The position numbers and the translations under genes were made by a program. A stretch of 15,473 bases of DNA, from assembly GCA_963843575.1 (NCBI GenBank), contig CAWJKZ010000006.1:1-15473 (forward strand), read 5' to 3'. Shown here in pieces: positions 3,691-10,748 of this stretch (position 1 is the first letter of the stretch; the number at the start of each line of letters is the position of its first letter). The notes beneath the pieces were generated by a model. It saw only the letters and a list, made by a program, of their open reading frames with translations, was not told the origin of the DNA and searched no databases. Source of the DNA: an uncultured Acidobacteriota bacterium. GTDB lineage: Bacteria > Acidobacteriota > UBA6911.

Positions 3691-3759
3691 TCCCGGACAT
3701 TGTGGTGACAACCGACGCAGGGGGAGTGCCTATACTGCTGCAGCATTTTGGGGAGACCT

Positions 3760-6269: not shown

Positions 6270-7802
6270 ATGAAGCGATTCTACCCCGTAGCCTTCCTTT
6301 TCCTCGTTGTTTGTTCGATCGGGCCATCGACCGGCTGCGCCGCCCGTCCGCCAGGGCGCCCGGCTGCCCCGGCGCACACCGCGGATGCGCTGGGACAACT
6401 GCGCCTGGACTTGGCGGGCATCTTCGACGACGCCAACTTCGGCAACGCACAGTGGGGTGTCGAGATCGTGTCACTCGACAACGACCAGGTGCTTTTCGAG
6501 CGCAACAGCACCCGGCTTTACATGCCCGCCTCCAACAACAAGCTGCTCACGGGCGCAGCCGCGCTGGTCCGGCTCGGCCCCGACTTCCGGTTTCAGACGC
6601 ACATCATGACCGACGGAACCGTTTCCGGCGGAGTGTTGCGGGGCAACCTCGTCGTTGTCGGCGCGGGCGATCCCACTACCGCCTCGCGGTTTCACGGGGG
6701 CGACCCATTCCGGGTGTTTCGGGACTGGGCGGGACAGCTGAAACAGATGGGGATCTCGAACATCGAGGGGAAGCTCGTCGGTGACGACGGAGCCTTCGCC
6801 GAACCGTCGATCGGTCGCGCGTGGGCCTGGGACGACCTGGCCTATGGATACGCGGCCCCGGTCACTGCCCTTCAGTTCAACGAAAACCTGCTGACCCTCG
6901 AGGTCACTCCGGGACCCGTCCCCGGAGCATCGGCCGGCGTCATGGTCTTGCCTGTGCCGGATTTCCTGACCGTCGAAGCCTCCGTCACGACCGCGGCGGC
7001 CGGGACCCTCCCCGACCTCGATCTGCTCCGCGGCGAGGGCGAAACCCTGCGGGTCACCGGTACGCTGCCCGCAGGCGGCGCACCCGTCGAACGCACGGTC
7101 GCGGTCCGATCGCCTGCGCGTCTCTACCTGACGGCTTTGCGCCGCGTGCTCGAGGAGGAGGGCATAACAGTTACGGGCGGCACGTCAGCGACGCGCAATT
7201 CGGATCTCTCGCACCTCACACTGCTGTGGAGTCACTCTTCGCCCCCGCTTGCCGAGATCCTCAAGCCCCTCTTCAAGGTCAGCCAGAATCTCTACGCCGA
7301 AACCATGGCCCGGACCCTGGGTGTTGCGGTATCCGGCACGGGGAGTTTCGCAAAGGGCAGGGAGGTGGTCGAACAGGTGCTCGGGCTCATGGGCATACAG
7401 CGGGGCAGCTACACCTACGCCGACGGTTCCGGCCTGTCGCGGCTGAACCTGATAAGCGCGGACCTGGTGGTCCGGCTCCTGAAATACGTGCACCGTCACC
7501 CCTCGTTCCCCCAGTTCTACGACGCTCTCCCGGTCGCCGGCGTGGACGGCACCATCGCCGACAGAATGAAAGGCACCCGTGCGGCGAATAATGTCCGTGC
7601 CAAGACCGGCACCCTCGCGAACGTGCGCTCCTTGTCCGGATACGTCGCTACGGCGGATGGCGAAACCCTCGTCTTTTCGATGATCGCGAACAACTTCCTG
7701 GTCTCGTCGGCGTCGGCGGAGTACGTCCAGGACACGGCGCTGCAGCGGTTGGCCACGTTCAGCCGGAGGCAGCCTCTGCCGTCAAGTGGGTCTGGGCTTT
7801 AG
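6270..7802 (+). CDS. dacB: D-alanyl-D-alanine carboxypeptidase/endopeptidase (PBP4, peptidase S13)
   Basis: SxxK (PASNNK), SxN (VSQN), KTG (AKTGTL), DGSGLSRLN, GAGDPT, LPVAGVDGT. Signal peptide from ATG 6270 (MKRFYPVAFLFLVVC...STGC, possible lipobox). Confidence 0.93.
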   Translation: MKRFYPVAFLFLVVCSIGPSTGCAARPPGRPAAPAHTADALGQLRLDLAGIFDDANFGNAQWGVEIVSLDNDQVLFERNSTRLYMPASNNKLLTGAAALVRLGPDFRFQTHIMTDGTVSGGVLRGNLVVVGAGDPTTASRFHGGDPFRVFRDWAGQLKQMGISNIEGKLVGDDGAFAEPSIGRAWAWDDLAYGYAAPVTALQFNENLLTLEVTPGPVPGASAGVMVLPVPDFLTVEASVTTAAAGTLPDLDLLRGEGETLRVTGTLPAGGAPVERTVAVRSPARLYLTALRRVLEEEGITVTGGTSATRNSDLSHLTLLWSHSSPPLAEILKPLFKVSQNLYAETMARTLGVAVSGTGSFAKGREVVEQVLGLMGIQRGSYTYADGSGLSRLNLISADLVVRLLKYVHRHPSFPQFYDALPVAGVDGTIADRMKGTRAANNVRAKTGTLANVRSLSGYVATADGETLVFSMIANNFLVSSASAEYVQDTALQRLATFSRRQPLPSSGSGL

Positions 7803-8062
7803 CCCGGACGTCTTTTGGTCTGAGCTATATAGCGACCAGCGTCCGGGCTGAAGAGGCTGTCCAACGGTTGAACCACCCGCCCCGCCCGTAAAGCAAGTGG
7901 GTCCGGGCTTCAGCCCGGACGTCTTTAAATCCGTTCCATAGAGTTCCACCTGCCCTGCATGGCGACCGCAAACAGCGTCCGGGCTGAAGCCCGGACCCAC
8001 GTGTGTCTTGTTTGGATCGGGCAGATCAACCGTTGGACAGCCTCTGAAGCCCGGACCCACTT
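7783..8062. repeat. Cluster of REP-like palindromes GTGGGTCCGGGCTTCAGCCCGGAC arranged as two inverted pairs
   Basis: Forward copies at 7786-7809 and 7897-7920 (33-bp context 7783-7815 vs 7894-7926, 2 mismatches). Reverse copy at 7977-8000. A split reverse copy at 7841-7853 plus 8044-8060. GTGG foot plus hairpin is the REP architecture. Confidence 0.85.
7853..8044. mobile_element. Non-autonomous MITE-like insertion with terminal inverted repeats and target-site duplication
   Basis: gaggctgtccaacggttga (7853-7871) is the exact reverse complement of tcaaccgttggacagcctc (8026-8044). It is flanked by duplicated TGAA (7849-7852, 8045-8048), or by CTGAAG if the ends are 7854/8043. Removing it restores an intact REP. 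Confidence 0.75.
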
Positions 8063-8073
8063 CACAGCGCCAT

Positions 8074-8529
8074 TCAGAAAGCCACGCCGTGCTTCGCCTC
8101 GGCGGGACCCGTCAGGTCGAGGACGCCGCCGCCGAGTACGGCCCGAACCGGCCTGCAGCGCGCCAAGTCCGGCGGGGTGGGCCCGTCCGAATCTACAGAC
8201 CAAATGACGAGGTCCGCGGCGGCGCCCGGCGCAATCGTGCCGCGCCCGGGGATCCGGAACCGGCGGGCGGCCTCGGACGTCCAGCGGGACAGTGTCTCGG
8301 CCGGGTCGCCCGACAGTTCGGACGGGGCGCGGTAGCGTTCGGCTTCAGCGCGGGTGAGCGCGTCCATGCCGAACCAGCGGGGGACCTTTACGGAGCGGGC
8401 CGGGTCGGCAGTCCCCGGACCCAGCACCCAGCCCCTTGCGCCGGCGGCGAACCACTCGGCGAGCAGCAGGTCCCAGTCGGGTCCGGCATCCGGGGGTGCC
8501 CCGGTCACGACGAAGCCCGAGTTCACCAT
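8074..8529 (-). CDS. Amidohydrolase-like C-terminal segment; probable frameshifted 3' part of the upstream M14 gene
   Basis: WTSEAARRFRIPGRGTIAPGAAADLVIW...RAVLGGGVL matches the C-terminal TxxxAxxxxxxxxGxIxxGxxADLVI pattern of metal-dependent amidohydrolases; overlaps the M14 ORF in another frame. Confidence 0.6.
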   Translation of the reverse strand: MVNSGFVVTGAPPDAGPDWDLLLAEWFAAGARGWVLGPGTADPARSVKVPRWFGMDALTRAEAERYRAPSELSGDPAETLSRWTSEAARRFRIPGRGTIAPGAAADLVIWSVDSDGPTPPDLARCRPVRAVLGGGVLDLTGPAEAKHGVAF

Positions 8530-9868
8530 TCCCCGCCGCGGAGTGCAGGCGGGCCGCGGCCGGGGATCTTGCCGACAGGCCGTCCCCGGGGATGCTGCGC
8601 AGGACCGTCAGGACGCCGCGCCTCAGATAGTTCTCGTCCGCCGCCGGGTCGATTGCCCCCGTCGTCGCAGGATCCCAGGCGATCAGCCCGGGGGTGATCA
8701 GGGTGCCAACGCAGTCCATCGACTGGTGGGCGGTGTAGACCCCGAGATCCCCGATGTCGGCGATGATCGCCGCGCCCCGCGCTGCCCGGCGCGCATCCCC
8801 CCGTATGGCAATGTCCCCCTTGAACACGGGGGTTGCCGCGCCGGTGTATATCCACGCGTTCTTCAGCAGCAAGTCGAATATCGGGGTGTCGCTGTTCATT
8901 CTCAGGGCGTCGAACACCGCGGGATTCGCCTGTCCGACGCGCCCGGTGGCCAGCGAATTCAGCACCGCGAGGATCCCGACGAAGTTCAGCTTCACCGGGA
9001 AGCCGGGGCCTTGTTCGAACGAGTATCCACCGCTTTCGATCAGGACGACCGGCGTTCCCCACTGGGTGAGGTTGTCGCCGAACGCGCGCGGGTTGTACGA
9101 CTCGTCGTAACGGGAGATGTGCCCGTAGGCGAAGGGCGACAGCGCATCGTAGAGCACCGCCGCGACCCTCCGGGTCAACAGGGAATCATTGTCCGCGGGT
9201 GCGGAGCCGGCCCCGACCGCCAGCAGTGCGATGGTCGCCACTTCGCCCGTGTCCCCTACCGTCGTGAGGCTGTTCTGGTCGTGCAGGTTGAAGCCGAGGA
9301 ACGGGAGATATCGATCGCGCACGGATTTGAGGACCCGCCCTTCGGGAGTCTGCAGGGCGCGCGCATCCCGGTTGATGTCGATCTCCTGGGCGTTGCGGCG
9401 CTGGTTGAGCTCCGCGCCGTCGGGATTCAACATGGGAATGCACAGCAACGTGTATTTCCCGAGGATCTCTTCGACCCAGGGCTCGCCGCGGTGGCGGCAC
9501 AGGAACTGGAAGAGGTCCAGCAGCGAACTGGTGGCGGTGGCCTCGTCGCCGTGCATCTGGGACCAGAGGAGGATCTTGTCGGCCCCCGTCCCCAGTGTCA
9601 CCAGATAGAGTTCCCGGCCAAGCACCGACTTCCCGGCCTGCTCGAGACGGGCGGTCTGGGGAAACTCGGCAATCAGCGCCTGGAGCCTGCGCTTCAGGTC
9701 CGCGTGCGTCAGGGAGCGCGGATCGTCCGGCGAGACGCGCTCTTTCTCCCACAGCGCACCCAGCCGTCTCACATCGACTTCGTATAGGTCCCCCGCCGGG
9801 AGGGATCCGACCGCCGCCAGCAAGGCAGATCCAAAAACGACACCCGCGAACCACGTCGATGCGTCCAT
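8345..9868 (-). CDS. Secreted M14-family zinc carboxypeptidase with amidohydrolase-like C-terminal extension (true end probably 8074 after a frameshift)
   Basis: Signal peptide; GKSVLGR, SQMHGDE (HxxE), NPDG, RRNAQEIDINRD, LHDQ, LIESGG; then FDLLLKNAWIYTG...DIAIRGD...IADIGDL...LITPGLI. GAGGG SD before ATG 9868. The sequence turns Arg/Gly-rich and non-protein-like after about 8550. Confidence 0.85.
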   Translation of the reverse strand: MDASTWFAGVVFGSALLAAVGSLPAGDLYEVDVRRLGALWEKERVSPDDPRSLTHADLKRRLQALIAEFPQTARLEQAGKSVLGRELYLVTLGTGADKILLWSQMHGDEATATSSLLDLFQFLCRHRGEPWVEEILGKYTLLCIPMLNPDGAELNQRRNAQEIDINRDARALQTPEGRVLKSVRDRYLPFLGFNLHDQNSLTTVGDTGEVATIALLAVGAGSAPADNDSLLTRRVAAVLYDALSPFAYGHISRYDESYNPRAFGDNLTQWGTPVVLIESGGYSFEQGPGFPVKLNFVGILAVLNSLATGRVGQANPAVFDALRMNSDTPIFDLLLKNAWIYTGAATPVFKGDIAIRGDARRAARGAAIIADIGDLGVYTAHQSMDCVGTLITPGLIAWDPATTGAIDPAADENYLRRGVLTVLRSIPGDGLSARSPAAARLHSAAGNGELGLRRDRGTPGCRTRLGPAARRVVRRRRKGLGAGSGDCRPGPLRKGPPLVRHGRAHPR

Positions 9869-10553: not shown

Positions 10554-10583
10554 CAAGCGGGTCCGGGCTCTCGGGCCGGGGAC
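10554..10583 (+). repeat. Degenerate copy of the 7.8-kb REP
   Basis: caagcgggtccgggct (10554-10569) matches caagtgggtccgggct (7894-7909) at 15/16; the 3' arm has decayed. Confidence 0.45.
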
Positions 10584-10669: not shown

Positions 10670-10748
10670 GAGAATCTTCGAGCCCTTTGAAAAACCTTGG
10701 AGGTCAAAAACCAACCTCCAAGACTTCTCGAAGGTCTCCAAGAATCTC
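10670..10748. repeat. Long imperfect inverted repeat (35-bp arms, 9-nt loop) between convergent genes
   Basis: 10670-10704 versus the reverse complement of 10714-10748 match at 28/35; the inner 9 bp (cttggaggt/acctccaag) pair perfectly. Confidence 0.75.

Follow-up and report, generated by a model that had tools for sequence, protein, structure and literature searches.

A nested palindromic insert in an Acidobacteriota REP doublet and its likely place in a family of hairpin-loop MITEs

The insertion sequence (IS) IS1397, a member of the IS3 family, targets the loop of a palindromic unit and produces a short duplication on insertion, and elements of the IS3 family have ends of the form TG...CA. 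More widely, repetitive extragenic palindromes (REPs) are described in PMC1525189 as specific landing sites for five IS families, and IS110 elements as being without terminal repeats. REP doublets are themselves mobile units, for which the REPIN architecture has been described (PMC3116915). In addition, REP dimers inside longer palindromes are on record in Anabaena variabilis and Halothiobacillus neapolitanus, and REPs in small palindromes in a third species (PMC3733652). The locus considered here lies in a stretch of 15,473 bp (64.4% G+C) of contig CAWJKZ010000006.1 from an uncultured Acidobacteriota bacterium (assembly GCA_963843575.1); this whole stretch is called the window. Within it, a 190-bp insert at positions 7854-8043 splits one REP of an inverted REP doublet and carries a second doublet of the same REP. 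The insert is very probably a non-autonomous transposon, a MITE (miniature inverted-repeat transposable element), that belongs to a family with the end sequence AGGCTGTCCAACGGTTGA and that has inserted in the loop of the REP.

The explanation that best fits the whole arrangement, and that seems likely when taken as a whole, is as follows. A MITE family that is defined by this 18-nt end and is spread among Acidobacteriota targets GC-rich hairpins of 7-9 stem pairs (palindromes of the REP type) and lands in their 4-nt loop. A DDE-type transposase, provided in trans, would make a staggered cut there; the resulting duplication is 4 bp long if it consists of just the loop, or 6 bp (C-NNNN-G) if the closing pair is included. 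In the window, such an element would have split the right-hand REP of a doublet that lies between convergent dacB-like and amidohydrolase/M14-like genes. A second REP doublet, a REPIN-like unit, would most likely have entered a precursor MITE of ~86 bp at its dyad centre, presumably by way of a REP-associated HUH/tyrosine transposase. The MITE transposase could then move the composite as one unit, as is seen in the 255-bp relatives, and a moved composite would bring with it fresh hairpin loops of the kind that the family targets.

The insert and its end-sequence family

The REP in the window is a short GC-rich palindrome with the 24-nt consensus GTGGGTCCGGGCTTCAGCCCGGAC, in which a GTAG-like 5' tail, GTGG, precedes an 8-bp stem capped by a tetraloop. 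Four copies are present, arranged as two inverted doublets (Table 1). Three of these are uninterrupted, with two mismatches in the outer copy and none in either of the inner ones, and shuffles gave 0 matches. The fourth is interrupted at its tetraloop by the insert, with CTGAAG (6 bp) or TGAA (4 bp) duplicated; when 7854-8043 and one CTGAAG copy are deleted, the remaining 24-mer is identical to the REP at 7977-8000. The outer and inner doublets are homologous past the REPs, having the common start CAAGTGGG...GACGTCTTT and the common end ...GCGAC..CAGCGTCC, although their spacers are 31 and 56 nt long, respectively. They also have the same left limit, CAAGTGGG, and the same right limit, ...CCCAC, which is followed by TT in the outer doublet and by GT in the inner one. 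An earlier note on this DNA, made from the letters alone, had described the outer pair, the split REP and the inner pair; its coordinates are correct to the base, and the likeness that it saw between the two spacers at their starts and ends is part of this homology.

The 18-mer AGGCTGTCCAACGGTTGA occurs exactly twice in the 15,473 bp, as perfect inverted repeats (18/18 nt) at the two ends of the insert, with no further occurrence at up to 3 mismatches; two matches were found in 0/200 dinucleotide shuffles, in agreement with the perfect terminal repeats of the earlier note. The ambiguity of the boundary that had been pointed out there is genuine: the copy in the window can be read as a CTGAAG duplication with an 18-nt repeat or as a TGAA duplication with a 19-nt repeat. 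Duplications of 4 and 6 bp are indistinguishable because nearly all targets carry C before the loop and G after it. (A third reading, GA with a 20-nt repeat, fits the copy in the window only and fails in related copies.) The inner doublet is exactly central, 25 nt from either terminal repeat. As single-stranded DNA, the complete 280-nt structure folds as one nested hairpin (-102.2 kcal/mol, z = -15.3). The 190-bp element, of which the window contains one copy, is non-coding, since the open reading frame (ORF) that spans the structure has neither a Pfam match nor a significant homologue among 5.8 billion predicted proteins. An RNA gene at 7852-8045 was considered and rejected: the Rfam matches, on both strands, are sub-threshold plant microRNA precursors (MIR820, 48 against a cut-off of 196 bits; mir-1422, 35 against 60), scores that arise because the region is a long hairpin and not an RNA family. 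Hairpin-templated copying as a source of the 25-nt subterminal segments finds no support in their 11/25 match.

That the nesting is an artefact, arising from the assembly of repeats or from an inverted repeat that occurs by chance, is extremely improbable. Repeat-rich intergenic DNA is prone to mis-assembly, and many of the related copies described below are situated at contig ends. However, a collapse or mis-join would not create a 6-bp duplication whose removal restores a perfect REP, the repeat pair was absent from all 200 shuffles, and the same architecture recurs in independent assemblies.

The distribution of the end sequence was obtained by scanning both strands of a species-representative genome collection of 596 Gb, which does not include the source genome of the window, for the exact 18-mer. 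This gave 35 loci (designated below by L numbers). Nineteen of them come from five Acidobacteriota/Terriglobia assemblies (11 from CAYYTC01, 5 from JAFNAG01, and 1 each from CAVRYD01, CAVTZY01 and CAVXIH01). The other 16 are single matches in unrelated phyla, compared with 17.3 expected by chance, and inspection of 40 nt of upstream and as much as 72 nt of downstream sequence revealed a flank of GC stem plus loop at none of them. Among the 19, L007 lies in apparently coding DNA without a hairpin and is probably a chance match.

The end bounds elements of several types. The element of CAYYTC01 is 96 bp long, has a right end that differs at 4/18 positions, and contains no internal GC hairpins. 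An element of about 255 bp is found in JAFNAG01 (L004, L030 twice, and L029), and its type is also present in CAVTZY01, where at L018 2776-3588 it has been enlarged to 813 bp by a nested small gene cassette. (The product of this cassette is a 112-aa protein of the 23S_rRNA_IVP four-helix-bundle type, PF05635, E = 1.7e-21, and GTCCAGGTCCAC-like hexamers, in inverted runs, lie on both sides of the cassette.) A 211-bp element with a different interior occupies L033 72-282; that interior has another long GC-rich inverted repeat (CCTGGGAGCGCGGGCGTC...). Past the 18-nt end, the 96-, 190-, 211- and 255-bp types have nothing in common, which argues that no more than the end is required, and this is how a transposase binding site would be expected to behave. 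L020 and L025 diverge soon past the end and continue as ordinary sequence with no transposase, as truncated or solo ends. The earlier note had proposed a MITE-type insertion in a REP loop and a search of relatives for its end. The proposal is borne out by the elements of 96, ~211, ~255 and 813 bp that the same end bounds in the five Acidobacteriota assemblies, nearly all of them in GC-rich hairpin tetraloops with the same style of duplication; the search led to the 19 loci.

Target sites were analysed in the 13 copies that have both ends, the one in the window included. A perfect 6-bp C-NNNN-G duplication is present in 9 of the 13, and the duplicated loops vary (TGAA, TGGA, TCAC, TGAC, GTCA three times, GTGA and TTCA). 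In 9/13 copies, the four loop bases are directly enclosed by 7 or more perfect stem pairs. Hairpins of this kind account for 28 of 133,769 positions in the same DNA (2.1e-4), giving a binomial probability for 8/13 of about 5e-27. The element in the window sits in a REP loop, and the target hairpin in JAFNAG01, GCGCGGGC-TGAA-GCCCGCGC, has the core CGGGCTGAAGCCCG in common with the REP of the window. In addition, six single-ended left flanks (L001, L008, L031, L022, and L029 twice) end in a GC run, four bases and G. Given that the sequence of the loop varies while the geometry of the stem-loop is constant, the enzyme appears to recognize hairpin structure or dyad symmetry rather than the sequence of the loop. 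As far as comparison of sequences can establish it, independent genomes lend strong support to the identification of a MITE with hairpin-loop targeting.

When a DDE-type transposase cuts in a staggered fashion, it characteristically leaves direct duplications of one fixed length at many different sites. The direct duplications seen here therefore make such an enzyme, acting in trans, the natural candidate, and to judge from these duplications only, it quite probably is what moves the MITE. Single-strand transposition by HUH enzymes, of the IS200/IS605 type, makes no target duplications. This bears on the alternative in which a tyrosine (HUH) transposase moves the element, an enzyme of the type associated with terminal inverted repeats (TIRs) in Acidobacteria (TIRtron/TIRYT); given the direct duplications in 9/13 copies, this alternative is very unlikely. 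In its favour, PMC3733652 describes TIR-flanked genes resembling those of REP-associated tyrosine transposases (RAYTs) as a sharply defined group in Acidobacteria, with matching TIR repeat families in some species. Nevertheless, the motif GGGGWSAS that the same text quotes for some of these TIRs is absent from the AGGCTGTCCAACGGTTGA end, and a Pfam scan found no Y1/HUH transposase gene nearby in the window.

Hairpin interiors and the presumed entry of the REP doublet

The interior of the 255-type element corresponds to a palindromic repeat found outside the family. A genomic repeat of CAYYTC01, uninterrupted once a 96-bp insert has been removed, aligns over ~190 nt with nt 33-225 of the 257-bp L004 copy. 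It consists of GC hairpins in a row, its two ends being inverse complements of each other (AGGCCCGAAGGGCCGGCAG ... CTGCCGGCCCTTCGGGCCT), and it aligns at six of the seven 96-bp insertion sites tested (L012, L006, L009, L023, L024 and L034, but not L005). In the CAYYTC01 assembly, copies of the 96-bp element occupy two different hairpins of the multi-hairpin repeat. The 255-type interior, in turn, is common to copies at different sites in two assemblies (L004, L030 twice, L029 and L018). Thus, the same multi-hairpin repeat is a landing pad in one lineage and the interior of an element in another.

A further case is the composite at L030 2395-2626. Here the loop of the first hairpin inside the element is itself the exact point of junction with a second copy of the end (...CAGGCCCGAAG followed directly by AGGCTG...), and a clean CTTCAG duplication, lying in a REP-like hairpin, borders the whole composite. 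Such a junction is what the insertion of one MITE into another, followed by recombination, would leave. The same composite contains a 42-nt tandem repeat (end sequence plus 24 nt), and L029 400-622 contains one of 123 nt (flank together with the element's left portion); each has the look of a scar from nested insertion and subsequent recombination. Since the interior repeat is multi-copy in composites and its hairpins are used as targets, elements of the family carry, and move with, hairpins of the kind in which their family lands.

How a doublet or hairpin array comes to lie inside an element is a separate question. The ends of the multi-hairpin unit, AGGCCC...GGGCCT, are the same in three contexts: in the JAFNAG01 elements, within the unrelated end family TAGTTTCTGTCGCGAAAC, and in L012 with no terminal repeats. 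(This second end family has both ends in L006, at 3364 and 3696-3713, and single ends in L008, L009, L020, L024 and L034; L006 3364-3713 is a three-level nest, in which a TAGTTTCTGTCGCGAAAC element contains the repeat and one of the repeat's hairpin loops in turn holds a 96-bp MITE.) Furthermore, the interior is exactly centred in each case, with 14/14 nt on the two sides in the 255-type, 9/9 nt in the TAGTTTCTGTCGCGAAAC family and 25/25 nt in the window; simple arithmetic puts the probability of such centring under uniform placement at roughly 1/29, 1/19 and 1/51, respectively. The constant ends of the unit, the exact centring and the common limits of the two doublets in the window favour self-insertion of a palindromic unit over its capture, and the balance tips somewhat toward a doublet that inserted itself. 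Entry ahead of the MITE's landing at this locus and entry following it stand at about even odds.

Capture would mean that the MITE took up the REP doublet as cargo and then actively spread its own targets. It could have come about by template switching in gap repair after excision, or from two copies that flanked a doublet and subsequently lost their inner ends. Composites with a host-repeat interior are indeed multi-copy in relatives, their interior hairpins are hit by the same family, and an element that targets REPs would be expected often to flank REP clusters. However, imprecise capture predicts neither constant unit ends in three contexts nor exact centring in three independent cases. 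In addition, a simple composite would be expected to leave REP halves next to the terminal repeats on their inner side, where there are none, and there are 96-bp members without a hairpin interior, which also indicates that such an interior is not obligatory. Capture is for these reasons regarded as unlikely.

Several observations weigh against the explanation preferred here, that of a hairpin-loop MITE moved in trans by a DDE-type transposase and entered by a self-inserted REP doublet. The search for the enzyme covered 8-kb stretches around the exact matches and end-like pairs at up to 4 mismatches, and no transposase gene bounded by AGGCTGTCCAACGGTTGA-like ends was found in the 35 loci, in plasmid records or in the open-access papers searched. 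The full-length IS with these ends and a transposase that the earlier note had asked about is accordingly missing from the 35 loci, and of its proposal of a DDE-type element, the part that stands comes from the direct duplications. (The sole inverted pair of end-like sequences 1-3 kb apart, in L035 of a Rhodobacteraceae genome, is a chance occurrence, as its second match is inside a large unrelated ORF and its flanks are ordinary genes. BLAST searches of plasmid records with a 96-bp copy and with the whole 280-bp structure gave short matches only, at E >= 0.8, and a Paraburkholderia phymatum plasmid match that overlaps the end sequence is an unrelated stretch.) A RAYT gene was likewise not found in the window by Pfam scan, and any link between these REPs and such an enzyme would be presumptive. 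The REP type of the window is absent from all 35 loci at up to 4 mismatches, and the evidence that the window itself provides on the route of entry consists of two doublets only. A comparison of the 92-aa spurious ORF across the structure with 5.8 billion predicted proteins, intended to reveal other copies indirectly, yielded a single candidate, which was not significant. Finally, a perfect duplication is missing in 4 of the 13 two-ended copies: it matches at 5/6 positions in L004, the flanks of L030 5997-6251 are degenerate, L018 has no matching right flank, and in L033 the duplication is inverted. The single-ended L020 and L025 are at AT-rich sites, CTTAAG and CTTTAA, without a GC stem. At L033, intact REP-like stem arms are present on both sides with inverted loops (CTGAAG on the left, CTTCAG on the right) in place of direct repeats, a configuration that recombination between two copies in oppositely oriented REPs might have produced.

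Taken together, these comparisons alter the model of the earlier note, in which an element that carries REPs would spread its own landing sites. Such spreading is supported as a consequence at the level of the family, through the multi-copy composite in a second lineage, the interior hairpins that have been hit, and the self-junction in L030; capture as its origin, again as far as the sequences speak to it, is probably not correct. As to its question whether all copies carry an internal REP pair, the 255-type has a host-repeat interior and the 96-bp copies have no hairpin interior. The alternative offered in the same note, that a REP pair landed in the MITE afterwards, fits the constant ends and the exact centring, with the two then spreading jointly, although the order relative to the landing of the MITE is left about evenly balanced.

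A more tentative proposal, doubtful as it stands, is of a mutual feeding between palindromic mobile DNAs of two classes: a transposase-dependent MITE that inserts only at the apex of hairpins, and a REP-type doublet or hairpin array, moved by another enzyme, that inserts at the dyad centres of MITEs. If this were true, each moved composite would plant new targets, leading to a self-reinforcing, Russian-doll expansion of intergenic repeats in Acidobacteriota, and three-level nests such as that in L006 would be footprints of reciprocal nesting. An active composite would offer a simple example from nature of a transposon able to multiply the sites it targets, and would help to explain the dense hairpin arrays in the intergenic DNA of soil bacteria. 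The findings also point to a transposase that may be structure-specific.

Genomic setting

The nested structure occupies the gap between the convergent dacB-like and amidohydrolase/M14-like genes, and no transposase of any kind was found by Pfam scan within the window. The last seven codons and the TAG stop of the dacB-like gene fall within the first REP. The stop is made by the variant loop of this REP (TTTA-G; window 7783-7802), and with the consensus loop in place of TTTA the frame would be ~7 codons longer; the REP thus provides the C-terminal residues and the stop of the dacB-like ORF. On the other side, the minus strand of 8074-9868 contains overlapping ORFs, each with a partial domain match (the C-terminus of Amidohydro_3 at 8074-8529, the first half of Peptidase_M14 at 8345-9868), which may represent a frameshifted or fused gene.

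Beyond the four REP copies, the window has one degenerate look-alike, GCGGGTCCGGGCTCTCGGGCCGGGGAC, in another intergenic stretch at 10556-10582; 12 of its first 13 bases match (the mismatch is at position 2), after which it diverges. The same intergenic region contains an AT-richer, terminator-like hairpin at 10697-10731 (CTTGGAGGT...ACCTCCAAG, with a 9-nt loop).

Table 1. Features of the nested structure and the adjoining genes, in window coordinates
Feature	Position	Strand	Basis or remark
dacB-like S13 D-Ala-D-Ala carboxypeptidase gene	about 6270..7802	+	Pfam PF02113, E = 3.7e-111; start probable; C-terminus ...PSSGSGL*
Outer REP, left member of outer doublet	7786..7809	+	2 mismatches: one weakens the stem, the other turns the loop into TTTA
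Spacer of outer REP doublet, 31 nt	7810..7840	.	Sequence
Split outer REP, left half (stem arm, loop, first CTGAAG copy 7848-7853)	7841..7853	-	Sequence
Very probable MITE, 190 bp, bounded by 18-nt terminal repeats	7854..8043	.	Repeat search; related copies
Left terminal inverted repeat, AGGCTGTCCAACGGTTGA	7854..7871	+	Repeat search
Left subterminal segment, 25 nt, unconserved in other family members	7872..7896	.	Sequence
Inner REP, perfect consensus	7897..7920	+	Motif scan
Spacer of inner REP doublet, 56 nt, both ends homologous to outer spacer	7921..7976	.	Sequence
Inner REP, perfect consensus, inverted	7977..8000	-	Motif scan
Right subterminal segment, 25 nt, 11/25 match to reverse complement of left one	8001..8025	.	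Sequence
Right terminal inverted repeat, perfect	8026..8043	-	Repeat search
Split outer REP, right half, opening with second CTGAAG copy (8044-8049)	8044..8060	-	Sequence
Convergent downstream ORF, amidohydrolase-like C-terminus	8074..8529	-	Pfam; overlaps M14-like ORF 8345-9868 in another frame

Comparison with described systems

REPs as landing pads for IS elements and REP doublets as mobile units were already known. The elements compared here are IS1397/ISKpn1 (IS3 family), ISPsy8, ISPa11, ISPpu9/10 and IS621 (IS110 family), and ISRm22 (IS4 family). The insert in the window resembles the IS1397 kind in that it lies in the loop of a REP. However, its ends are AGGCTG.../...CAGCCT (or GAGGCTG...) and not the TG...CA of the IS3 family, and it has no OrfAB transposase ORF; unlike the IS110 elements, it has terminal repeats. 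It differs from all of these REP-targeting IS in being non-coding and 190 bp long, in having no identified parent IS, in having REPs inside it, and in belonging to another host phylum.

With REPINs, the outer and inner units of the window share an architecture of two inverted REPs and a spacer, with a GTGG tail, an 8-bp stem and a tetraloop; unlike a REPIN, the 190-bp element has terminal repeats and a duplication. A REP dimer that is central in a longer inverted-repeat unit is also seen in GTAG-15 of A. variabilis and CGTC-1 of H. neapolitanus, and the REPs of T. roseum lie inside small palindromes (PMC3733652). The section of that paper on those embedded dimers describes neither a target duplication nor a loop insertion by the outer unit, nor a family across genomes, whereas here the outer unit behaves as a transposon that targets REP loops. 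In the open-access literature text, neither the AGGCTGTCCAACGGTTGA end sequence nor a description of such a MITE family or of reciprocal nesting was found; the features not met with there are an Acidobacteriota-wide MITE family that would read a stem and tetraloop, an interior that is repeatedly a host repeat, and nesting in both directions.

Bacterial MITEs in general (ERIC, NEMIS/Correia and MITEAba12, for example) are likewise small and non-coding, with terminal repeats, a duplication and, as here, multiple copies in relatives. The present family departs from them in its strict preference for the apex of a hairpin and in the conservation of only the 18-nt end, together with an interior that is swapped between lineages and made of the palindromic repeats of the host.

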